From: an uncultured Pseudomonadota bacterium
GTDB taxonomy: Bacteria > Babelota > Babeliae > Babelales > RVW-14
Assembly (NCBI GenBank): GCA_964493325.1
Contig: CAZBMD010000002.1
Span: forward strand, 26,416 to 90,415
Direction of reading: 5' to 3'
DNA length: 64,000 nt
The notes beneath the pieces were generated by a model. The model ran no database searches. It saw only the letters and a list, made by a program, of their open reading frames with translations, and had not been told where the DNA came from. Below, piece by piece: positions 1,817 to 24,139 of the stretch (within the stretch, counting starts at the first letter, position 1; each line of letters begins with the position of its first letter). A program made the position numbers and the translations under genes.

Positions 1817-1855
1817 CAAGCACGGTAGCAACAACTACCGTGCTTGAAATTTTTT
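1817..1855. terminator. Bidirectional rho-independent terminator between convergent genes
   Basis: Perfect 12-bp stem caagcacggtag / ctaccgtgcttg with 6-nt loop, followed by a T-run. Sits between the gnd stop and the stop of the minus-strand lectin gene. Confidence 0.8.
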
Positions 1856-2471
1856 ATTGCTTTGAGGTTCGATTTTTACGAGCTTTATGGTTAGTTTTTT
1901 CTACATTTTTGCTTCTGGTTTCAAGGATTTCCCTGTGTATGATTTCTTCTGTTTCTGCTCCAAGTAAACTGAGAAAGACAGCATTATCGGAGTGAAGGAA
2001 GCAGCCTCCAAAAAATGCTCGAATTTTTTCATCAACTGGAGCTGATAAACTAAATGGTGTTTGAGACTCCATACTGTCGCCGCTTCCAAAAGGACCGAAT
2101 TGTTTTCCTTTTCTTGTTTTAAAAACAACTTTTGCTAAATGCATTCCTCCATACCAGTATCCATAAACACCTGAGACTTTGACAATTGGATCGTTGGGAG
2201 AAACTCTGAATTCTGCATTGAAACTATTATCCAAAGGATTACAAGTTCCTAGCTTTTTTTTCCCATAGTAGACTTGTATACGATCAAAAATGCTTCCATG
2301 CCAAATTCTTATTCTTGTAATAGGCTTTGTTGCTTCATCTCGATGATCAAATGTCCCTGAAGAGTTTCCTCCAATCGGACCGAGCGTTGTGGCTTGACAG
2401 CTAAAGCCTCCTTTGATTAATGCTAGTCCGAATACCAGCATTGTGGCATATTGTATTTTATGAAAATTCAT
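1854..2471 (-). CDS. Secreted jacalin-like (beta-prism I) lectin domain protein
   Basis: Hydrophobic N-terminal signal (MNFHKIQYATMLVFGLALIKG). Blocks GGNSSGTF, ITRIRIWHGSIFDRIQVYYG, VSGVYGYWYGGMHLAKVVFKTRKGKQFGPFG and IRAFFGGC..LSLLGAE resemble jacalin-type lectin repeats. Basic C-terminal tail. Confidence 0.6.
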   Translation of the reverse strand: MNFHKIQYATMLVFGLALIKGGFSCQATTLGPIGGNSSGTFDHRDEATKPITRIRIWHGSIFDRIQVYYGKKKLGTCNPLDNSFNAEFRVSPNDPIVKVSGVYGYWYGGMHLAKVVFKTRKGKQFGPFGSGDSMESQTPFSLSAPVDEKIRAFFGGCFLHSDNAVFLSLLGAETEEIIHREILETRSKNVEKTNHKARKNRTSKQ

Positions 2472-4536: not shown

Positions 4537-5016
4537 TTATTTTGTAAAGGTGGTTTGAATTTTTGTCTTCAGTTCATCTTTTGAAACAAAACCTTCAATA
4601 CGGTCTTCTTGGCTTGTTTCTTTGCCATCTTCAAAAAAGAGGAATGCTGGGATACCTCTGATGCCGTATTGTTTTGCAATATCTCCAGCTTCATCAACAT
4701 CAATCATGGCAAACTTTGTTGATGCCAAGTCTGCATCATGAGCAAGTTCTTCATAAATTGGTTGCATGTCCTTACAAGCCCCACACCATTCAGCATGAAA
4801 CTTTACAATGACCGGTGCTTTTTCCTGAAGGACTGCTTCTTCAAATTGAGTATCATTTTTGATGTGTATGACGGATGAAGAGTTTTGATGTTGTGCTGTT
4901 ACATGTTTTTTACTGCCATGGTCGTGTCCACAGGGACACTTGTGGCAGCCCCATTTGCATGAACTAAGAAATACAAGGCTGATGACACTTACGCACTTTA
5001 AAAATTTTGTAATCAT
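4537..5016 (-). CDS. Thioredoxin-fold lipoprotein with Cys/His-rich N-terminal segment
   Basis: Internal ATG at 5016 gives MITKFLKCVSVISLVFLSSC (lipobox LSSC). This is followed by KWGCHKCPCGHDHGSKKH and a thioredoxin domain with a WCGACK active site. Confidence 0.75.
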   Translation of the reverse strand: MITKFLKCVSVISLVFLSSCKWGCHKCPCGHDHGSKKHVTAQHQNSSSVIHIKNDTQFEEAVLQEKAPVIVKFHAEWCGACKDMQPIYEELAHDADLASTKFAMIDVDEAGDIAKQYGIRGIPAFLFFEDGKETSQEDRIEGFVSKDELKTKIQTTFTK

Positions 5017-5130
5017 ATTGTTTTCCTGAAAAAAAGGAGGATTAAGATTCTTTAGACGATTCTTTTTATAATATCTGGAAAACAAAAGTAAGTATAGATA
5101 CCCTCAAGGAGAGGAGCATTTCTTTGCTTT

Positions 5131-8090: not shown

Positions 8091-8876
8091 CTAAAAAAGA
8101 AACGGAACTTTTTTAGCGACCAGAGCGTTTCCTTTTTCAAGAAATTCTGATTCGGGAAACTTGCTTGCAAGAATTTGTAGATTCTTTGCTACAAGCTCTT
8201 TATTTCTTTGTCGGTGAGCAAGCTTGCTTTCAAGAAACAGAAGGCGAGCTTCAAGGGCTGGGTTGTTTGGCAGGTATTTTTCTTTTAAGCTTTCAAGACG
8301 TTTTTCGGCTGCCGCATACTTTTTCTGATGCACATAAAAATCAAAAATGTAGACCTCTTTGTCAATAATCTTGCGTTGGCATGTTTGTTGAACACTAATC
8401 ACATCGTTGCGATAGGTAATGTATGAGTTGTCGTTTAGGTATTCTCGACAAAGCTTGAGTGCATTTTCGGTTGGAGTTTGATCACAATCTGAGCGGAGTG
8501 TCTGGTTGAACTGTGCAAGAATTGATTGGTATTTAGCGTATTCGGCTTTTTCGTCAGAAGGGTAAAATTGGTGAAAGTGCTCATATAGCTCGTGAGCTGC
8601 TGGATATTTTTCAAGTCTAAAAAGTGTATCAGCAAGCAGAATTTTGTAGGAGGCAATGTTGGGTTTTTCTGCGTGTTGCGAGATCATAGTTTCTAGGTAT
8701 TCGGCAGCGTCATCAAGATGTTTTTTTTCTAGAGCGACAAAGGCATTTTCTTTGAGCTCTTCAAAACTCATCTCTTCTTTGCTTTTTTGTTTTGCGCACG
8801 ATGACAGAAAAAGGGCAAAAAGAGCGACACCAAAAAAGCGGTGTAGGCAAAAAAAGAATCTGTTTTTTTGAGTCAT
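8091..8876 (-). CDS. bamD: Outer membrane protein assembly factor BamD-like TPR lipoprotein
   Basis: Signal peptide with lipobox (FLSSC). ~260 aa helical TPR-like repeats resembling YfiO/BamD. Confidence 0.55.
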   Translation of the reverse strand: MTQKNRFFFCLHRFFGVALFALFLSSCAKQKSKEEMSFEELKENAFVALEKKHLDDAAEYLETMISQHAEKPNIASYKILLADTLFRLEKYPAAHELYEHFHQFYPSDEKAEYAKYQSILAQFNQTLRSDCDQTPTENALKLCREYLNDNSYITYRNDVISVQQTCQRKIIDKEVYIFDFYVHQKKYAAAEKRLESLKEKYLPNNPALEARLLFLESKLAHRQRNKELVAKNLQILASKFPESEFLEKGNALVAKKVPFLF

Positions 8877-9155: not shown

Positions 9156-9182
9156 GAAAAAAAGCCCCGGAAATCCAGGGCC
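9156..9182 (-). terminator. Rho-independent terminator after paralog 1
   Basis: Stem gccccgg/ccagggc (one mismatch), loop aaat. The plus-strand A-run gives a T-run on the minus strand. Lies 35 nt downstream of the stop of 9217..9828. Confidence 0.6.
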
Positions 9183-9216
9183 TTAATTAGGCGAGACTTA
9201 CATATTTTAGTTTTTG

Positions 9217-9828
9217 TTAATCTGGGAGGTTAAAGTCTGTATCACCTTCTGATGACAAAGTCAGTACATATCCTTGAGCACCATCTCTTTTTGACGGGTC
9301 GATTACGCATAATTTGGCACGAGGGTCATCTGTTCTAACAAATCCTAATATTGCCCAGCGGTTTCTGTATTTTGTAATAACGGGACCTTCGTGTGATGGA
9401 AACATGTCTGCGGCAAATACGAGTACAACTTCAGGGTAATACTCTAGCATGTGTATTTTAAATGCTTGCTTAAATTCTAGGTCTGTAATTTTATTTTCAT
9501 CATAAGAACATGATCCAAGATATGCAGCTTCTTGTTCAATTCTAAATGTGCAAAAACCAATGCATTCTTCATTGTTATAGCAGCAGATAAGTTTAAGGGC
9601 TCCACTTTTAACCATATCTTTTAGACCATTCATGCGGTCTTGAAAGTACCCAGGGGGGGTCTTTTGACCAAGTTCTTCAAATAATTCAGTGTGCATTTTG
9701 ATGGCGATTTGTTCTACAATGGACCAGTCTTTAAGATTTCCACTGCTCATGGAAATATCTGCATTCAGGTTGCTGGCCATGGTGCTTGCGCAGATCCACA
9801 TAAACGCTAACCGTACGATGTTTTTCAT
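9217..9828 (-). CDS. Secreted protein of unknown function, tandem paralog 1
   Basis: Signal-like N-terminus MKNIVRLAFMWICASTMASNLNA and GAGGAG SD. Shares the C-terminal block FAADMFPSHEGPVITKYRNRWAILGFVRTD..AKLC..GAQGYVLTLS with the two upstream genes. Confidence 0.8.
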   Translation of the reverse strand: MKNIVRLAFMWICASTMASNLNADISMSSGNLKDWSIVEQIAIKMHTELFEELGQKTPPGYFQDRMNGLKDMVKSGALKLICCYNNEECIGFCTFRIEQEAAYLGSCSYDENKITDLEFKQAFKIHMLEYYPEVVLVFAADMFPSHEGPVITKYRNRWAILGFVRTDDPRAKLCVIDPSKRDGAQGYVLTLSSEGDTDFNLPD

Positions 9829-9894
9829 TTTTTAATCTCCTCTAAAATTGACAGACCGATAGAACATCTAGAATGTAATTTTTGCTCTGCGGAT

Positions 9895-10554
9895 TTATGT
9901 TGTCAATAGATTGAGTATGTATCCTTGTGCTGATGATTTTATTTGTTCATCTGGTGCATAAGAAAGTGCATAGGGATGATCTGTTTGAACAAACCCCAAT
10001 CTTAAGTAACGATTTTTGTGATACATGCAGATTGGATCTTGAGTTTCAGGAAAAAGATCTGCTGCAAACATGAACTTTACGTCATTGTAGTTTTCTAAAA
10101 GATATTGTTGAAGAGCTTGCGAAAAGTTTAAGTCATCAATAGCTTCTTCGTGATAGGCACAGGAATCAAAATAAGCATGTTCGCCTTTAACGCTAAAAGT
10201 ACAGTAGCCAATAAAATTTTCGTCTTTTCTTTGGTCTTCTTCGTAGCATACCATCAGGTCTACATGTTTTTCTTCGAAGATGTTTTTTTTCATTTTTTTA
10301 AGCCATGGCGAAAAGGCGTGCGCTGCTATAATCGTAAACTCAGATAGCATAAAATTTTCCATATAAAGTCGGTCTCTATTTTTAGTCTGGGCTTCGTTTA
10401 TTAAATTTGTGTATATCTTTGTTTCAAGTTCAATAATTTTGAGCCAGTCATTAATGATTCCTTTTCGAGTTGAAATAACTGCGGTTAGGTTGCTGATCAT
10501 AGTGCTTGAAAATAGTATTATACAGACTAATCGAACGAGATTGTTTATTATCAT
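9895..10554 (-). CDS. Secreted protein of unknown function, tandem paralog 2 (most divergent)
   Basis: Start moved to ATG 10554 (MIINNLVRLVCIILFSSTMISNLTA). That start aligns with the paralog N-termini and has AGGAG 6 nt upstream. Conserved block FAADLFPETQDPICMYHKNRYLRLGFVQTD..SAQGYILNL. Confidence 0.75.
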   Translation of the reverse strand: MIINNLVRLVCIILFSSTMISNLTAVISTRKGIINDWLKIIELETKIYTNLINEAQTKNRDRLYMENFMLSEFTIIAAHAFSPWLKKMKKNIFEEKHVDLMVCYEEDQRKDENFIGYCTFSVKGEHAYFDSCAYHEEAIDDLNFSQALQQYLLENYNDVKFMFAADLFPETQDPICMYHKNRYLRLGFVQTDHPYALSYAPDEQIKSSAQGYILNLLTT

Positions 10555-10631
10555 AAGGTCTCCTTTTTTTAACAGTTCTATCCTTTTGATAATCAAGGTT
10601 GCAAGCGACTGCTTCTATGTCAACCGATTGT

Positions 10632-10665
10632 AAAAAAGAAGCCCTGGACTTCCAGGGCTTCTTTT
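10632..10665. terminator. Rho-independent terminator after paralog 3 (A-run/T-run on both sides)
   Basis: Perfect 10-bp stem gaagccctgg/ccagggcttc with loop actt, flanked by aaaaaa and tttt. Lies 34 nt downstream of the stop of 10699..11337. Confidence 0.8.
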
Positions 10666-10698
10666 CAATTAAAACATCTTATTGAAAGAGTGTTGTTA

Positions 10699-11337
10699 CT
10701 ACAGTGGTACTGGGGTGTTCAGAGAAAGAACGTAGCCTTGGGCCCCGGCTCTCCTTGATTCGTCAGCAGCACACAACTTGGCATCTGGACTATCTGTTTT
10801 TACAAAGCCTAAATTATTCCAACGATTTCTGTATTTTGTCATCACAGGACCGTTGTGATTTGGGAACATATCTGCTGAATATACGAACTTTACTTGAGGA
10901 TAATTCTTTAGAAGATAGAGGTTGAAAGATTTTTTAACACTCTCATCATCAGTGAGCTCTTCATTGTAAGCGCATCCGCCAAGGTAAATGGCGTCGCCGT
11001 TTATTCTGAACATAACATAACCAACAAATTGTTCAGAAGAGTACCATTCAGATTGGTCTGACTGATTGTTATAACGTTCTGTTGTTAACACAAAAAGCTC
11101 CAGTTCTTTTTTTTCAAAAACAGAAACATGCCTGGCTACCATCAGTGAGTCTAAATGATTTGAAGGTATCTGTTGTCCAAGCTCTTCCATAAATTCAGTG
11201 TACATTTTAATGGCTGTGTTGGTAACTTCTTTCCAATCAAATTCTGTACCTTTGCGAGCTGTCAAATCAGCATGCAGATTGTTAATCATGGTACTTGCAC
11301 AGAGCATCGCACAAGCTAAGCGAATTATGCTTTTCAT
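10699..11337 (-). CDS. Secreted protein of unknown function, tandem paralog 3
   Basis: Signal-like N-terminus MKSIIRLACAMLCASTMINNLHA and AGGGAG SD. C-terminal block YSADMFPNHNGPVMTKYRNRWNNLGFVKTD..AKLC..GAQGYVLSL. Confidence 0.8.
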   Translation of the reverse strand: MKSIIRLACAMLCASTMINNLHADLTARKGTEFDWKEVTNTAIKMYTEFMEELGQQIPSNHLDSLMVARHVSVFEKKELELFVLTTERYNNQSDQSEWYSSEQFVGYVMFRINGDAIYLGGCAYNEELTDDESVKKSFNLYLLKNYPQVKFVYSADMFPNHNGPVMTKYRNRWNNLGFVKTDSPDAKLCAADESRRAGAQGYVLSLNTPVPL

Positions 11338-11376
11338 ATAATCTCCCTTCTAAAATAGAAAAACTACTCTGACATT

Positions 11377-11397
11377 CCTGAAATTGAGAATTTCAGG
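11377..11397. repeat. Perfect 9-bp inverted repeat (cctgaaatt gag aatttcagg) upstream of paralog 3
   Basis: Read directly from sequence. Lies 40-60 nt upstream of start codon 11337 on the minus strand. Function (operator or 5' UTR hairpin) unknown. Confidence 0.5.
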
Positions 11398-11624
11398 GTA
11401 CGATTATCATGTCAATAGTGTGTTCAAAAAAAAGAAGCCCGAGATTTCCGAGGACTTACTTGTCAGAAGCTAAACAAAATTAGTTTGAATCGAAAAGAGG
11501 ATTTGGTTCTGGCTGGTATAGGCAAAGTATGTCGCTCCGCTCATCAGATTGCATTTGTTGATAGAATATGACCTCAAGATCTTCAGAATCGCCTGTTGTG
11601 ACAAGTCCCAAGAAGTTGGCAGTT

Positions 11625-13817
11625 TTATCGCGCTTGAAGATCGCTGGTGAGAAATTGTTTGAGGAAAGTTAGGCGATCAACTTGTTTGTTGTTGTTGATA
11701 CCCATGGCAACCGCTTTAGTTTGTCCAACCAAAACGCAGAGCTTTTTTGCTCGCGTGATAGCTGTGTAAATAAGGTTACGCTGCAGCAGCATAAAATGTT
11801 GCATAAATAGAGGAATGATCACTGCTTGAAATTCTGAGCCTTGGCTTTTGTGAATGGAAATAGCATATGAGAGCATGAGCTCGTTCATTTCGGTAAAGTC
11901 ATATTCAAGGTCTCGTTCACCAAAGCGAACAATGACTTGAAGATTGACTCTATCGATATCAAGAATGGTGCCGATATCGCCGTTAAAAACAAATTTATCG
12001 TAATTATTTCTGATTTGCATAACGCGGTCGCGTACTTTGAATACTTGTCCAAATTGAACCACCTGTTTGGTTTCATCAACATCAGGATTTAAGATCATCT
12101 GGAGTTCTTGATTAAGCCTTATGGCTCCAGCTGTGCCACGATTCATGGGCGTTAATACAATCGCGTCATCAGGGCTGATGCCAAGCGCTGGGAGCTTGGT
12201 TTTGTAAATAGTGCGAAGAAGCGGGAACATCTCTTCTGGTTCGTTTTGTTTTACAAATGCAAAGTCTTTTTTTGATCCAGGTAATGCTGCTTGGGGAAAT
12301 TCTCCGTGATTGACGCGGTGAGCATTAACAATGATCATGCTGTCTTGTGCTTGTCTAAAAATTTGTGTGAGCCGGATGACTGGTATAATTTCTGAACCAA
12401 TTAAGTCGTGTAGCACATTGCCCGCGCCGACTGATGGCAGCTGGTCGATATCGCCCAAGAGGACGAGTGACGCGTTTTGAGGCATGGCTTTGAGCACAGA
12501 GTGCATTAAGAAAACGTCAATCATTGATGCTTCATCAACAATCAAGAAATCAATTTCAAGTGCATTTTGTTCATTGCGGGCAAAGCCCATCGACAGCGGG
12601 GTAAATTCAAGAAGTCGATGCAGTGTTTCGGTGTTGCGGCCGGTACTTTCGAACATGCGTTTTGCCGCGCGTCCTGTGGGTGCTGCTAGTCTAAAGCGAG
12701 CTTTATGTTCTTCAAGAACTTCGATAAGTCGCCTGGTTGTCGTCGTTTTTCCTGTTCCAGGTCCACCGGTAATGATAGTAATTTTATTTTGCAGGCAGGT
12801 TAAAATTCCTTGTTGTTGATCTTCATTAAGTTCTATCCCTTTTTTATCAGGCGTACGCAGGCTTTGATACACGGAGTGTGTGTCAAATTGGATGTGTGAC
12901 AGCGCTTGCTCCTGGAGCTTTAAAATTTTTTTGCTAATACCGATTTCTGAATAATAGAATTGTGGCAGCGCAAGAAAATGTTCATTTTCATAAGTTATGA
13001 GTTTTACTTTTTCTTGTTGATAGAGCTCTACAAGCGATCTCTTAAGTAGATCGGTAACAAGGGTGGCATCAAGACCAATAAGCTCAATTACCGCTTCTTT
13101 GGTTGCTTCAACTTTTTTATACAGGTGGCCTTCGGTTGTTGCTTGCGAAAGAACATGAAGCATGCTTGCTTTTACTCGTTCAATAGAATCGTGAGCAAGG
13201 CCCATCTTCAGGGCTATGCTATCGGCCGTTTTAAAGCCTACACCCCAGATGTCATCAACAAGCCGATAAGGATTTTCTTGCATTTTAGCGATTGATTCTT
13301 GGCCGTATTTTTTAAAAATTTTTACGGCAAATGTTGTTGGAACATCTTTGGATCGCAAAAAGATCATTACTTTGGAAATTTCTTTTTGCTCTTGCCAGGC
13401 TTGTGTAATGAGGTCAACACGTTTTTGGCCAACACCTGCAACTTCAAAAAGTCGAGAAGGTGTTTGTTCAATGATCTCAAGTGTTTGAGCTCCAAATTTT
13501 TTAACCAGCTTTTCAGCAAATTTTGGTCCTATGCCTTTGATAAGGCCCGACCCTAGATATTTTTCAATACCGACAATAGATGATGGAAGTGAGGTTGTGC
13601 AGGATTGTGCGTCAAATTGTCGACCAAATTTTGCGTGGAATGCCCATTGCCCAGTAAGTGTAACTTGTGCGCCTTGGTGAACTTCTGCAAAATATCCGCG
13701 AGCGACAATCGATTCTGAGGCACTGACTTTGAGTGCTATGACTGAATAGCCATTATCCGGGCTTTTAAAAAGCACACGATCAACGGCTCCAGAAATTTCT
13801 GTTATTTCTCCAGCCAT
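11625..13817 (-). CDS. recD2: RecD2-type ATP-dependent SF1 DNA helicase
   Basis: 730 aa. Walker A GGPGTGKTT, DEASMID (motif II), and a C-terminal SIHKSQGSEF..TAITRAK helicase motif. N-terminal HhH-like region as in RecD2. Confidence 0.9.
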   Translation of the reverse strand: MAGEITEISGAVDRVLFKSPDNGYSVIALKVSASESIVARGYFAEVHQGAQVTLTGQWAFHAKFGRQFDAQSCTTSLPSSIVGIEKYLGSGLIKGIGPKFAEKLVKKFGAQTLEIIEQTPSRLFEVAGVGQKRVDLITQAWQEQKEISKVMIFLRSKDVPTTFAVKIFKKYGQESIAKMQENPYRLVDDIWGVGFKTADSIALKMGLAHDSIERVKASMLHVLSQATTEGHLYKKVEATKEAVIELIGLDATLVTDLLKRSLVELYQQEKVKLITYENEHFLALPQFYYSEIGISKKILKLQEQALSHIQFDTHSVYQSLRTPDKKGIELNEDQQQGILTCLQNKITIITGGPGTGKTTTTRRLIEVLEEHKARFRLAAPTGRAAKRMFESTGRNTETLHRLLEFTPLSMGFARNEQNALEIDFLIVDEASMIDVFLMHSVLKAMPQNASLVLLGDIDQLPSVGAGNVLHDLIGSEIIPVIRLTQIFRQAQDSMIIVNAHRVNHGEFPQAALPGSKKDFAFVKQNEPEEMFPLLRTIYKTKLPALGISPDDAIVLTPMNRGTAGAIRLNQELQMILNPDVDETKQVVQFGQVFKVRDRVMQIRNNYDKFVFNGDIGTILDIDRVNLQVIVRFGERDLEYDFTEMNELMLSYAISIHKSQGSEFQAVIIPLFMQHFMLLQRNLIYTAITRAKKLCVLVGQTKAVAMGINNNKQVDRLTFLKQFLTSDLQAR

Positions 13818-13835: not shown

Positions 13836-14432
13836 TTACTTAGAATCAGTTTTCATTTTTTTGAGCTCTTCCACAGCTTTCTTTCTTGCTGTTTCAGATA
13901 TGCTTTTATACAGAGATGAAAAAACATGAGAGCAGTCATGGCAAAATTGTTCAAGCAAAGAAACTGAAGTAATTTCTTCAAGTGCAAAAGCTTCGACTGG
14001 TTTGGAGATGTTAAAAAGTTTTCCGAGCATGGTATCTGATGCGTTACGGCCAGTTCCTTCAAAACATTGATCAATCAACGGAGAGACCATCGATTTATTT
14101 TCACGAATAATATCAAAAAAGTCTTTAGCTGGATCAAGAATAAGTTTTAGTTGTGTTTCTATAAATCCTTTATCTACAGGATCTTTTTTCGCCGTGATGT
14201 TTTGGAGGACTTGTTTGATTTTTGCTTCTGCAAATTTAATGCGAACAGTAACCATTGGGTATTGCTCGAGTACTACGTTAAGAAGAGGCATTTGAGAGCC
14301 GGTGAGTGTTTTTGCGCCTGAGTATACAATTGTCTTATCATGTACGGCTTGAGTTGCTGCTTCTACTTTTGCAAACGTGATTTGTGTTGCAAGAAAGCCA
14401 ATTGATAGCGACAGGAGTAGTTTTTTCTTCAT
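13836..14432 (-). CDS. Secreted hypothetical protein
   Basis: Clear signal peptide MKKKLLLSLSIGFLATQITFAKVEA. No recognisable motif. Directly downstream of the outer-membrane barrel gene on the same strand. Confidence 0.6.
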   Translation of the reverse strand: MKKKLLLSLSIGFLATQITFAKVEAATQAVHDKTIVYSGAKTLTGSQMPLLNVVLEQYPMVTVRIKFAEAKIKQVLQNITAKKDPVDKGFIETQLKLILDPAKDFFDIIRENKSMVSPLIDQCFEGTGRNASDTMLGKLFNISKPVEAFALEEITSVSLLEQFCHDCSHVFSSLYKSISETARKKAVEELKKMKTDSK

Positions 14433-14503: not shown

Positions 14504-15988
14504 TCAAAATGATGCTACAAATTTTAGGTAAACTGTCCAGTCATTGCCGATTCCTCTGCTCAGCGCTGTGACGTCACCGCCAAGACCCACTTGAAGATTG
14601 CGGGATGCAGATTTTTTTATTGAATAGAGAACTTCAGAAAAAATTTTATGCTGAGAAACCGTGTCAGATTCAGCATCTTTGATGCGTAGGTCAGTAATCG
14701 AAACAGATGGATTATTGATCGTACGAATAAATTCTTGTTGTTGTGCGTAAAAATCATATCCAACAGCAACAGACCAGCTATCTATGTTGCAGGATACACT
14801 TGTAATAAAGTTGAACACGCCACCTGGACTGACTAAACACTTAAATGATGATGGAAATATGTATTGCTTCATGTAATCATTAATAATATTTCCGTTGTTT
14901 GGATTGTTAGGTGTTACCATAAGAAGGTCTTCTGGCTTAAGAACTTGGTTAAACATAATGAGTCGGTCTTCGTAACCGTCAAATAGTTTATCGTATGATG
15001 CGCGCATCCAAATGGTTGCAATGTCATGAAAGATACCAATTTTTGATTCAAAATAAACACCAAGCCCGTAGTGTCCATTATTCCCAAGGGGGGCATTTAG
15101 CAAATAGTTTCGAATGTTTTGTAAAATACTGACGGCATTAGTTACTAAGGTGTCAGAATCAACGGCTCCAGCTATTTTGTCAACGTTAACGCTAATTGTT
15201 GGGCCGCGTGATAAATTACCGGTTGGAAGAATAGCTTCAAAGCCCACGTCAGTTTGAAAGTTTGTCATATTTAGAGAGTTGATTCCAAGTTTGATGCGTG
15301 TATCACCCATGCCATAGCGGATAATGAGCCCCTCGTCATCATCAAATGCAGCCCCGGGGAAATTCTTAGCTAAAATACTTTTAATTTCTTGTTGGCCACT
15401 GGAGTTAATCCAGAGGTTTCTTTCTGCAAGCAGAAGAGAGGTATGTAATTGAATAGTAAAGGGCCCTTTGGTAGCTCCAAATTGGATAAATGCACCGGCT
15501 TTGCGTTCCTGAATAGTAATATTTCGGAACAGCGGAATAAGTTGGACAATATCTTCTTTGCTAATCATTGATGATGGAAGGAGTTGAATAAGAAAGTTAT
15601 TTTCAAAGTCTTTGACGTCAAGAAGATTTTTGACGGTAACAGGCATCTTGTTGGTTTCATTAAAGAAGAAATTGACCGCTACGCCGCCTTTTTCAAGCGC
15701 TGCGAATTTGTGAGGGAAGTGGTACAAGATATTACGGGCAAAGGGGCTTTGTGTGTGGTTCCAAAGAGGGCTTGTTATGTTGCTGAGAACCAGTGCGATA
15801 AGCGTAGGATCAACAGGCAGGGTCATTGGGCCTCTGGTTTGCTCATACGCCTCGATATCGCTCAAATCGATATTGAATTCGTTGTTATCGCTGCCAAAAA
15901 AGTCAAAATCGTCCAGTTCGTCAGCTGAACAGCTCATGCCGAACATGATTATCGAAGCTAGTAAAGCGTTTTTGAGAAACAAGTTCAT
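14504..15988 (-). CDS. Putative outer-membrane beta-barrel protein (unknown family)
   Basis: Signal peptide MNLFLKNALLASIIMFGMSCSA. Alternating hydrophobic beta-strand-like pattern. Ends in the OMP-type C-terminal signature ..VYLKFVASF (terminal Phe). Confidence 0.55.
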   Translation of the reverse strand: MNLFLKNALLASIIMFGMSCSADELDDFDFFGSDNNEFNIDLSDIEAYEQTRGPMTLPVDPTLIALVLSNITSPLWNHTQSPFARNILYHFPHKFAALEKGGVAVNFFFNETNKMPVTVKNLLDVKDFENNFLIQLLPSSMISKEDIVQLIPLFRNITIQERKAGAFIQFGATKGPFTIQLHTSLLLAERNLWINSSGQQEIKSILAKNFPGAAFDDDEGLIIRYGMGDTRIKLGINSLNMTNFQTDVGFEAILPTGNLSRGPTISVNVDKIAGAVDSDTLVTNAVSILQNIRNYLLNAPLGNNGHYGLGVYFESKIGIFHDIATIWMRASYDKLFDGYEDRLIMFNQVLKPEDLLMVTPNNPNNGNIINDYMKQYIFPSSFKCLVSPGGVFNFITSVSCNIDSWSVAVGYDFYAQQQEFIRTINNPSVSITDLRIKDAESDTVSQHKIFSEVLYSIKKSASRNLQVGLGGDVTALSRGIGNDWTVYLKFVASF

Positions 15989-16040: not shown

Positions 16041-16368
16041 TGATCTGATAGGATCGATATTTAATTGGTTGTTTTTCTGGTAATCGCTATCAGTACTGGA
16101 CTTTTGCGAAAAAAGCATAGTTAAACTGAAGATTGAATCATGTATGTCATTTACACAAACTTTTTTGAGAGCTTATGCAAAGAGCAAATTAAACTATAAA
16201 CCCTAAGTCTGTCAATGCACTTAAAGATTTGTAGGTTTTTCTCATTTTTTTTAAAAAAAATGGTATGTGATTTACAAAGGAGCTACACTGGGCGCTGTTG
16301 AAAATTGGCACAAAAGACAAAATAAGGCCTTAATAAAAGCTTTATTAGATTTAAGGGAGCTTCCATTT

Positions 16369-17100
16369 ATGGAGACACAGCTACAGGACAAACGATTATT
16401 TATTCTTGAGGGTAATATTGGCGCGGGCAAGTCGACGTTGCTCAAAATCCTTAAGGAAACGCTTAATATCGATATCATTGATGAACCTATTGATAAATGG
16501 CAAAACGTTGATGGTCAAGAAAATCTCCTTGATTTGTTTTACAAAGACACTAAGCGTTGGGCGTATACTTTTCAGTCGTATGCTTTTATTTCACGCGTTC
16601 AAGCCATTTTTGATAGTAGTAAACGGCCTGGGAGCTCACCTACTCAGATTCTTGAGCGTTCGGTTTTTTCAGATAGATTTTGTTTTGCAAAAAATGCCTA
16701 TGAAGCCGGTCTAATGAGTGATTTGGAGTGGCAAATTTATAAAGATTGGTTTGAGTGGTTAGTGGGTTCATACATGCCTAAGCCTCAGGGGTTCATTTAT
16801 CTCAGAACAACTCCTCACGTTAGTCACGCGCGCCTTACCAAGCGAAACAGGCATGAAGAAAGCAGCGTTGCCCTTGACTACATGGAGGCATTACACAAAA
16901 AACACGAGGATTGGCTCATTCATAAGGTTGAGCAGCCAGCTTATATCGCGCATATTCCTGTGCTTGCGCTGGAGTGTGATCATGATTTTGAAAAAGATCG
17001 TAACGAATTGGATCGCCACGTTGCGTTGATTAAGAGTTTTATTGAAACGGGAGTTTCTCCGCTTTCAGAAGTAGCGTCTTTAAAGCAGGTTGCTATTTAG
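16369..17100 (+). CDS. Deoxynucleoside kinase (dNK/dCK/dGK family)
   Basis: P-loop EGNIGAGKSTLL close to the N-terminus when ATG 16369 (METQLQDKRLFILEG) is used. ERS motif (LERSVFSD) and Arg-rich lid (RLTKRNRHEE). The track ORF starts at GTG 16267. Confidence 0.8.
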   Translation: METQLQDKRLFILEGNIGAGKSTLLKILKETLNIDIIDEPIDKWQNVDGQENLLDLFYKDTKRWAYTFQSYAFISRVQAIFDSSKRPGSSPTQILERSVFSDRFCFAKNAYEAGLMSDLEWQIYKDWFEWLVGSYMPKPQGFIYLRTTPHVSHARLTKRNRHEESSVALDYMEALHKKHEDWLIHKVEQPAYIAHIPVLALECDHDFEKDRNELDRHVALIKSFIETGVSPLSEVASLKQVAI

Positions 17101-24046: not shown

Positions 24047-24139
24047 GGAGAGGTGGCTGAGTGGTTGAAAGCGACCGTCTCGAAAGCGGTTATCCTGGTA
24101 ACCCCTGGATCGTGGGTTCAAATCCCACCCTCTCCGCCA
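24047..24139 (+). tRNA. tRNA-Ser (anticodon CGA), class II with long variable arm, CCA encoded
   Basis: Folded by hand. Acceptor ggagagg/cctctcc, 3-bp D stem, anticodon stem accgt/gcggt with loop ctCGAaa, long variable arm, T arm gtggg-ttcaaat-cccac, discriminator G, then CCA. Confidence 0.9.

Follow-up and report, generated by a model that had tools for sequence, protein, structure and literature searches.

An array of putatively exported proteins with a predicted GNAT fold and a non-canonical donor site at the recD2-bamD locus of a Dependentiae bacterium

In the genome of an uncultured Dependentiae bacterium, the genes for a RecD2-type helicase (recD2) and a BamD/YfiO-type outer-membrane lipoprotein (bamD) enclose three small genes, which we designate c1, c2 and c3 and of which c3 comes first in the direction of transcription (Table 1). 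The locus was analyzed as part of a 64,000-nt stretch (contig CAZBMD010000002.1 of assembly GCA_964493325.1, positions 26,416 to 90,415), hereafter called the window. The picture that emerged is that of a rare protein family that combines a putative Sec signal peptide with a predicted fold of the GNAT type and whose gene content and alleles differ between closely related strains.

The paralog array and its variation between strains

A preliminary description of this DNA had proposed a tandem triplication of same-strand paralogs, each preceded by its own AGGAG-type Shine-Dalgarno (SD) sequence. All three genes indeed reside on the minus strand, and their products are clearly related (E 2e-40 to 2e-64). 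Identity amounts to 45% by BLASTP (E 2e-64) and 48% by MAFFT for c1 and c3, to 34% (E 2e-40) and 38% for c1 and c2, and to 35% by BLASTP (E 2e-44) for c2 and c3, such that c1 and c3 are the closest pair, as had been noticed before (45-48% versus 34-38%). The shared motifs that had been pointed out (DW, AIKM[HY]TE..EELGQ, [FY][AS]ADMFP, KYRNRW..LGFV and AQGYVL) are all present. While the paralog array as such was corroborated, the notion of a triplication did not hold: the synonymous divergence (dS) between paralogs is saturated (2.1-3.1), and because it exceeds 2 between the copies, the duplications giving rise to c1, c2 and c3 are indicated to be old. A recent triplication in situ was rejected on the same grounds, and the locus is better described as an old array that comprises two to four genes. 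The ratio of non-synonymous to synonymous substitution rates (omega) lies at 0.19-0.27 between paralogs and at 0.16-0.34 between orthologs, which indicates functional genes under purifying selection; together with open reading frames (ORFs) that are intact in at least eight independent assemblies, this speaks against the decaying pseudogenes that had been considered beforehand.

The SD sequences are located 6-8 nt before each ATG, in agreement with the preliminary description. In the ORF list, c2 starts at TTG 10596; the SD sequence belongs to the ATG at 10554, which is also where gene calls made independently on related contigs place the start. For c3, an identical NCBI protein exists. Terminator-like hairpins bound c3 on both sides and follow c1 (Table 1), whereas a terminator scan of the 66 nt separating c2 from c1 found none, which suggests two transcription units, one with c3 alone and one with c2 and c1 together. 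Because the c2-c1 gap is free of terminators, these two genes probably form an operon. Upstream of c3 (11400-11455) and of c2 (10600-10660), the minus strand carries a common module of a GC hairpin, a T-run and, some 10-15 nt further downstream, a TTGACAT motif; gene and regulatory region appear to have undergone duplication together. A scan with the sigma-70 promoter consensus yielded six sites compared to 9.2 expected from shuffled sequence and called neither TTGACAT site. As consensus sites do not exceed the shuffled expectation, no promoter is claimed for the array.

Comparison of related contigs reveals the recD2-bamD locus as a cassette or variation hotspot that is occupied by two, three or four genes. 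The window strain shares the arrangement c3-c2-c1 with L001, where the flanks are 100% identical. In L067, L068 and L069, only c2-c1 is present and c3 is missing, even though the flanks of L067 and L068 are 99.5% identical at the nucleotide level over 6.6 kb. L005 and L006 (flanks 96-98% identical at the nucleotide level in L005) combine c2 (96% amino acid identity) with a c1 allele that is 69% identical. A sister species (sample ERR1356746) contains four genes, P0015-P0006-P0002-P0014 (L063 8001-8663 with L004 1-1943), and the genes at the first position, c3 and P0015, are just 26% identical despite 88% nucleotide identity in recD2. The 69 nt that take the place of the c3 cassette in L067 and L068 do not occur in the window; they are homologous to the spacer between recD2 and P0015 of the four-copy sister species. 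Since the arrangements recur in several separate assemblies of different samples, an assembly artefact is unlikely.

Variation also reaches into c1. The block of c1 in which sliding identity between window and L005 drops (Table 1) is flanked by sequences of 93-100% nucleotide identity; the codons for the signal peptide and the 3' end of the gene lie outside it and are 93-98% identical. Between the window and L005, dS is 0.60 in c1 (omega 0.34) and 0.015 in the adjacent c2, and because synonymous divergence is this high, an imported allele is indicated rather than mutagenesis. Hypermutation in situ, including the action of a diversity-generating retroelement, was rejected for the same reason; no reverse transcriptase was present in the ten flanking ORFs (Pfam) or in the Pfam annotations of related loci, a template repeat not having been searched for. 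Simple gene conversion from c3 was likewise rejected as the origin of the B allele of c1, in which just one 36-nt patch is c3-like (94%) and the remainder is closer to c1-type genes and equidistant from both known c1 lineages. Further alleles of c1, among them P0010, differ in their C-terminal mosaic.

Table 1. Positions of the array genes, their flanks and associated features in the window, in the direction of transcription
Feature	Position	Strand	Details
recD2, RecD2-type helicase, upstream flank	11625..13817	minus	conserved, Pfam architecture seen on L063 and L067; fixes array position
c3 cassette	10681..11622	minus	942 nt: c3 and 285 nt upstream; replaced by 69 nt in strains with 96-99.5% identical flanks
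Terminator-like hairpin and T-run	11438..11452	minus	3' of recD2, 5' of c3
SD of c3	11348-11343	minus	AGGGAG
c3 (P0004)	10699..11337	minus	212 aa; signal-like residues 1-23, then predicted GNAT-fold domain
Putative signal-peptide-coding part of c3	11269-11337	minus	heuristic
c3 insertion			about 14 aa, paralog-specific, in β2-β3 hairpin
Terminator-like hairpin and T-run, then TTGACAT motif	10637..10653	minus	after c3; divides c3 from the c2-c1 unit
SD of c2	10564-10560	minus	AGGAG
c2 (P0005)	9895..10554	minus	219 aa from ATG; signal-like residues 1-25, then predicted GNAT-fold domain
Putative signal-peptide-coding part of c2	10480-10554	minus	heuristic
c2 insertion			17 aa between α1 and α2; low model confidence (pLDDT) at residues 62-74
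SD of c1	9843-9837	minus	AGAGGAG
c1 (P0001)	9217..9828	minus	203 aa; signal-like residues 1-23, then predicted GNAT-fold domain from β1 (26-29) to β7 (185-190)
Putative signal-peptide-coding part of c1	9760..9828	minus	MKNIVRLAFMWICASTMASNLNA, cleavage before D; heuristic
c1 putative recombinant block versus L005	9303..9783	minus	63-80% nucleotide identity (sliding identity)
Strong terminator-like hairpin and T-run	9161..9184	minus	after c1; 10 bp, 6 GC pairs
bamD, BamD/YfiO-type outer-membrane lipoprotein, downstream flank	8091..8876	minus	conserved; PF13525, E 9e-15; lipobox LSSC

Predicted fold, donor site and export signal

Searches of Pfam, NCBIfam, PADLOC, PHROGs and the PDB sequences, with single sequences as well as profiles, returned no significant match for c1, c2 or c3, let alone a confident match to a housekeeping family, and at the sequence level it was therefore correct to speak of proteins with no recognisable function. 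The structure models are more informative. The AlphaFold2 (AF2) model of c1 has a predicted local distance difference test score (pLDDT) of 83.1 and a predicted template modelling score (pTM) of 0.75, and its secondary structure elements, as assigned by DSSP, follow each other in the order β1 (26-29)-α1-α2-β2-β3-β4 (101-109)-α3 (116-130)-β5 (136-141)-α4 (149-160)-β6-β7 (185-190), which is the GNAT topology. The same order of elements was obtained for the AF2 model of c2 (pLDDT 76.6). Both models were built from an alignment of the same six family members. When the c1 model was compared with the PDB by Foldseek, 251 matches had E values of 1e-3 or lower, and all 50 matches listed belong to the GNAT superfamily, among them RimL, SpeG, AAC(6')-Ib, HP0935, PaiA and Gcn5, with target-normalised TM-scores of 0.55-0.69 at 10-15% identity. 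For c2, all 39 matches below this threshold were GNAT proteins, and so were the 50 matches listed. Foldseek probability was 1.00 to hundreds of GNAT structures, no other fold appeared among the 50 matches listed per model, and a search of a viral structure library agreed with the GNAT fold. The vague resemblance to GNAT acyltransferases that had been suspected from the order of sequence blocks is thus real at the level of the predicted fold.

Profile comparisons gave hints that stayed below significance. The best Pfam match among 12 family members was Acetyltransf_1 with an E value of 0.072 and a score of 13.8 bits (cut-off 20.7). These sub-threshold matches (E 0.07-0.11) are in the correct register and extend from α2 to β4, up to position 65-66 of the 116 in the profile; motif A (Q/RxxGxG/A), the CoA pyrophosphate-binding element, we take to lie just beyond this point. 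Acetyltransf_10 and a PHROG acetyltransferase provided further sub-threshold hints in the correct register, while weak matches to TscT-toxin (E 0.029), DUF2735, DUF5634 and others were taken as noise. In a non-significant hhalign comparison with a RimI profile, which was shallow in that all retrieved RimI homologs were more than 80% identical, the LGF of RimI was paired with the LGF of the family. Because neither the Pfam threshold was reached nor motif A found, c1-c3 were not assigned to a described GNAT family; judged by the models, they are highly divergent GNAT proteins at the fold level that stand outside any such family.

The alignment confirms the earlier remark that a Q/RxxGxG/A motif is not visible. 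In its stead, the β4-α3 loop and the N-terminus of α3 read DENKITDLEF in c1, HEEAIDDLNF in c2 and NEELTDDESV in c3, all of them devoid of glycine and net negative, and hhalign, again without significance, sets QRQGLG of RimI opposite ITDLEF of c1. Of motif B, in which α4 ends in a hydrophobic residue followed by G and F, often with a general-acid Tyr four residues ahead of the Gly, the G-F is kept: G162 and F163 are invariant in all 12 members and align with the LGF of RimI, albeit in a low-confidence alignment. The third invariant residue is W35; near-invariance extends to G30, D34, G91 and F95, and the majority of these residues are structural. A tyrosine, Y154, is conserved one helical turn before position 158, and further conserved elements are the basic stretch T-K-Y-R-N-R-W in α4, A-D-M-F-P after β5, A-Q-G-Y in β7 and D-W at the start of α1. 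Constraint thus acts on the fold and on some of its donor-side surface; canonical CoA binding cannot be assumed, and with a donor site that appears non-canonical, cofactor use is uncertain. Differences between the paralogs are chiefly due to insertions in surface loops, namely α1-α2 in c2, β2-β3 in c3, and β5-α4 (8 aa) and β6-β7 (12 aa) in P0014; P0015 is devoid of the AQGY and ADMFP motifs. In canonical GNATs, the α1-α2 and β6-β7 loops line the acceptor site.

A signal-like N-terminus had been noted for all three proteins, and we judged it by a home-made heuristic. The n-region is basic (K2 and R6 in all three, in addition R8 in c2), the hydrophobic core reaches a mean Kyte-Doolittle value of 1.9-3.0 over ten residues, as compared to 2.4-2.7 in two exported proteins of the window and 1.2 in two cytoplasmic controls, and a cleavage motif, L-x-A followed by D or V, is conserved at residues 23-25. 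An n/h/c pattern was apparent in 11 of the 12 family members. Cleavage by signal peptidase I would occur after L-x-A. A lipobox ([LVI]-[ASTVI]-[GAS]-C) is found in none of c1, c2 and c3, Cys13 being preceded by W-I in c1 and by M-L in c3 and replaced by F in c2, whereas a true lipobox occurs in the same genome in the neighbouring BamD (LSSC). Lipoprotein identity, that is, processing by signal peptidase II, was rejected for want of a lipobox, and the signal-like N-termini are accordingly of the signal peptidase I type. As the predicted cleavage site is only 2-3 residues ahead of β1, the mature protein would essentially consist of the GNAT domain alone, with 20-23 kDa, a pI of 4.9-5.1 and 2-6 cysteines. 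Between the paralogs, conservation of the signal region (52-61%) exceeds that of the mature domain (36-46%) despite saturated dS, and the motif STM..NL.A is confined to c1, c2 and c3 within the window. This suggests constraint beyond generic Sec targeting, for example by a sorting signal.

Distribution of the family and the Dependentiae setting

An exhaustive search of 1.84 billion protein representatives with a hidden Markov model (HMM) retrieved 10 family proteins at E values of 1e-3 or lower, and six family clusters came up when 5.8 billion clusters were searched by word index. The family HMM detected no extra members in the whole window or in 55 RecD2 loci of other Dependentiae and other bacteria, a c1 peptide scan of 185,579 species-representative genomes yielded no relatives, and a metagenome contig scan with a four-sequence alignment gave no family match. 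Where the context of family members could be recovered, it is of the Dependentiae type. The bacterium of the window is identified as a member of the Dependentiae (Babeliales) by its RecD2, whose relatives at 55-73% identity stem almost exclusively from metagenome-assembled genomes labelled Dependentiae, TM6 or Babeliales, and a near-identical locus resides on a 1.35-Mb contig, which fits a small genome. Distant members occur as single copies elsewhere in their genomes, P0020 (L065 8001-8705) between genes for a pyridine-nucleotide oxidoreductase and ruvX/mraY, and P0019 (L064 2995-3600) next to a gene for a WD40 beta-propeller protein.

Those Dependentiae that have been cultured live inside protists as obligate parasites, and in one of them, Chromulinavorax destructans, signal peptides are present on 44% of the coding sequences and on 78% of the ankyrin-repeat proteins, most exported proteins are of unknown function and outer-membrane vesicles have been seen during infection (PMC6561590). 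The core genome of TM6 bacteria includes a type II secretion system (T2SS) that has gspD in two copies (PMC4776705).

Several other genes of the window encode proteins that may leave the cytoplasm. At 1854-2471 (minus strand), a protein of 205 aa is encoded that combines a signal-like N-terminus with a Jacalin-like lectin domain (PF01419, E 1e-14), a lectin fold of eukaryotic, plant-type character; occurring in a Dependentiae genome, this protein may bind host glycans. Signal-like N-termini without a Pfam match were seen in proteins of 198 aa (13836-14432, minus strand) and 494 aa (14504-15988, minus strand), the former of which recurs immediately upstream of recD2 in many loci of Dependentiae (21-33% identity) and thus forms a conserved gene pair with it. 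A thioredoxin with an N-terminal extension of about 70 residues (4537-5085, minus strand) is possibly exported, and a deoxynucleoside kinase is encoded at 16267-17100 (plus strand); both would suit a bacterium that depends on a host and scavenges nucleotides. Beyond bamD follow genes for YraN and then a RibD_C protein. The window has a GC content of 37-43% and a single tRNA gene of 90 nt (24047-24136, plus strand), and its GC skew has a positive sign in nearly all 2-kb bins, such that the cumulative skew climbs almost monotonically over the 64 kb.

Proposed function and competing explanations

The reading that we favour as a whole, with a probability of roughly 0.45, is that c1-c3 are exported via Sec and serve as acyltransferase-like effectors, possibly directed at the host, whose donor site is non-canonical. 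Its components differ in strength. We are confident that a real, functional and exported GNAT-fold family is at hand; a host-directed effector role is conceivable, if somewhat short of an even chance, and catalytic activity as an acyltransferase is a more tentative proposition still. The proteins would be exported across the inner membrane via Sec and cleaved after L-x-A, and they might then be released by the T2SS of the TM6 core genome or within outer-membrane vesicles and act as acyltransferase-type effectors on targets in the protist host or in the envelope. The loop insertions evident from the alignment, including that in the α1-α2 acceptor loop, may direct the paralogs to different targets. 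At the putative donor site, the acidic, glycine-free loop would stand in for motif A, with the basic KYRNRW helix α4 and the LGF of motif B being kept, and genes and alleles would be swapped between related lineages by homologous recombination, as expected in host-parasite conflict. A role in host interaction or in the envelope had already been put forward in the preliminary description; the affiliation of the bacterium with the Dependentiae and the strain-level cassette variation strengthen that suggestion.

A number of observations weigh against this reading. The structural models are based on six aligned sequences, and no sequence-level statistic backs homology to GNATs, the hhalign probability being 0.2%. 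Motif A was sought in the β4-α3 loop and is absent, and the acidic loop found there should disfavour binding of the CoA pyrophosphate. The position of the general acid of RimI, Tyr115, is taken by W158 in c1 and c3, by Y in c2 and by C, T, F or L elsewhere, and D34 is the sole polar residue that is near-invariant across the 12 members. The signal peptide was called by our own heuristic, acetyl-CoA is not expected in the periplasm, and activity would require delivery past the outer membrane, which stays hypothetical. Omega values below 1 give no direct sign of positive selection.

A serious competing possibility is that c1-c3 are exported GNAT-fold pseudoenzymes whose scaffold would no longer bind a cofactor and which would be non-catalytic ligand- or protein-binding modules or decoys in the periplasm, at the surface or in the host, with each paralog binding a different partner. 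This main rival, to which we give less weight than to the effector reading, draws on the loss of motif A with its replacement by an acidic donor loop, on the fact that no catalytic residue is conserved family-wide and on the general expectation that CoA thioesters do not occur outside the cytoplasm; non-enzymatic GNAT-like folds exist, ornithine decarboxylase antizyme being an example. It is less easily reconciled with KYRNRW in α4, ADMFP and AQGY, which are strongly conserved among the close paralogs in spite of saturated dS and sit where canonical GNATs contact the cofactor, suggesting a preserved small-molecule site, and with D141 at the end of β5, which in a low-confidence alignment lies beside the position of the catalytic Glu of RimI. 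The unusual conservation of the N-terminus, 52-61% as opposed to 36-46% in the mature part, is not what one expects of a disposable signal peptide and hints at an extra role; combined with AF2 models that show the N-terminus as one long helix and with bamD as the adjoining gene, it could be taken to mean that the segment is an uncleaved inner-membrane anchor and that the protein acylates envelope lipids or peptidoglycan precursors, either as a signal-anchor protein with a periplasmic GNAT domain or, in violation of the positive-inside rule, facing the cytoplasm. We regard this as improbable: the uncharged stretch of 13-21 residues contains the polar sequence S-T-M-x-S-N in its second half and has a core that is short for a stable transmembrane helix, the L-x-A site followed by D or V is conserved, and K2 and R6 predict an N-in, C-out orientation that would place the domain outside the cytoplasm anyway.

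Small exported paralogs in tandem that vary by presence or absence and by allele swaps between strains also bring to mind periplasmic immunity or defence arrays against periplasm-acting toxins of competitors, comparable to orphan immunity-gene islands, for which arrays of small paralogs with just this kind of variation are typical. PADLOC, however, returned no family for c1-c3 even at E values up to 10, no gene for a toxin, Rhs, VgrG, contact-dependent inhibition (CDI) or a type VI secretion system lies nearby, the flanks being the housekeeping genes recD2 and bamD, and the GNAT fold is not known from periplasmic immunity proteins. Cultured Dependentiae live within protists as obligate parasites (PMC6561590), so that contact with bacterial competitors is probably limited, and of the alternatives that concern function we deem this the least probable, slightly behind the membrane anchor. 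That the ORFs are decaying or spurious, or that the fold is an artefact of a shallow alignment, is effectively refuted. It is true that only six sequences entered the AF2 alignment and that significant sequence homology to anything is missing; on the other hand, intact genes in at least eight assemblies, omega values of 0.16-0.34, SD sites and terminators bounding the units testify to real genes, and two models with different target sequences from the same six members converged on one topology and on exclusively GNAT match lists.

A more far-reaching version of the effector reading is that c1-c3 represent an unrecognised class of GNAT-fold effectors exported via Sec and T2SS, which would have a donor site rebuilt without a P-loop and with an acidic β4-α3 loop and a basic α4, use a non-CoA or host-derived acyl donor beyond the bacterial cytoplasm or serve as decoys, and diversify by whole-gene and intragenic cassette swaps at a fixed chromosomal hotspot in Dependentiae that parasitize protists. 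As a joint claim, this is doubtful.

Comparison with known systems places these proposals in context. With the GNAT superfamily (RimI/RimL, SpeG, AAC(6')-Ib, HP0935; Pfam clan CL0257), c1-c3 share the predicted fold, the element order, a domain of about 165 residues and the invariant G-F of motif B; they differ in a best Pfam E value of 0.07, a replaced motif A, a general-acid Tyr position that is W or variable and a Sec signal, GNATs being typically cytoplasmic. Legionella VipF and Mycobacterium tuberculosis Eis, the latter not known to have a classical signal peptide, are GNAT effectors, and GNAT effectors of intracellular bacteria typically keep a recognisable GNAT signature including the CoA-binding motif. 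Further effectors of this kind, delivered by type IV secretion, are BspF of Brucella (PMC10534853) and Ceg10 of Legionella (PMC12773746). The resemblance of c1-c3 to BspF and Ceg10 lies in the GNAT fold, a host-dependent bacterium, delivery to a eukaryotic host, which is a proposal in our case, and lineage restriction; unlike these, c1-c3 have a Sec signal and lack motif A, and both their secretion and their target are hypothetical. A secretion signal in front of a GNAT domain (InterPro IPR000182) is found in Hg-GLAND1, a candidate effector of cyst nematodes whose gene was acquired from actinomycetes (PMC4828791). The parallel consists in a signal combined with a GNAT domain in a parasite and a proposed action inside the host, whereas c1-c3 are bacterial, are not recognisable by sequence, show no homology to Hg-GLAND1 and, in contrast to the latter, are organized in a tandem cassette array. 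GNAT folds without the canonical acetyl-CoA P-loop occur in LuxI-type acyl-homoserine lactone synthases, FemX, Leu/Phe-tRNA protein transferase and antizyme. Like c1-c3, these have kept the scaffold and lost or altered motif A, in favour of alternative donors or no catalysis; these families are cytoplasmic and depend on acyl carrier protein thioesters or aminoacyl-tRNAs, donors that are unavailable outside the cell, and none of the four was preferred among the Foldseek matches listed. The fold itself is ordinary; it is unusual that a Sec signal, a rebuilt donor loop, extreme rarity and cassette swapping within a species come together, and that they do so in a parasitic phylum that has hardly been studied.

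With the GNAT assignment, an orphan exported family of a protist-parasitic phylum gains a confident predicted fold, whereas a fold or mechanism has been assigned to almost no such putative effector. Strains that are 99.5% identical and yet differ by whole genes, and alleles that diverge by 30%, together with a change in the donor loop, point to host-parasite conflict. Should c1-c3 prove active beyond the bacterial cytoplasm, the known range of places where GNAT enzymes work, and of donors with which they do so, would widen; should they be inactive, they would be a clear case, from bacteria, of a GNAT pseudoenzyme that is secreted.

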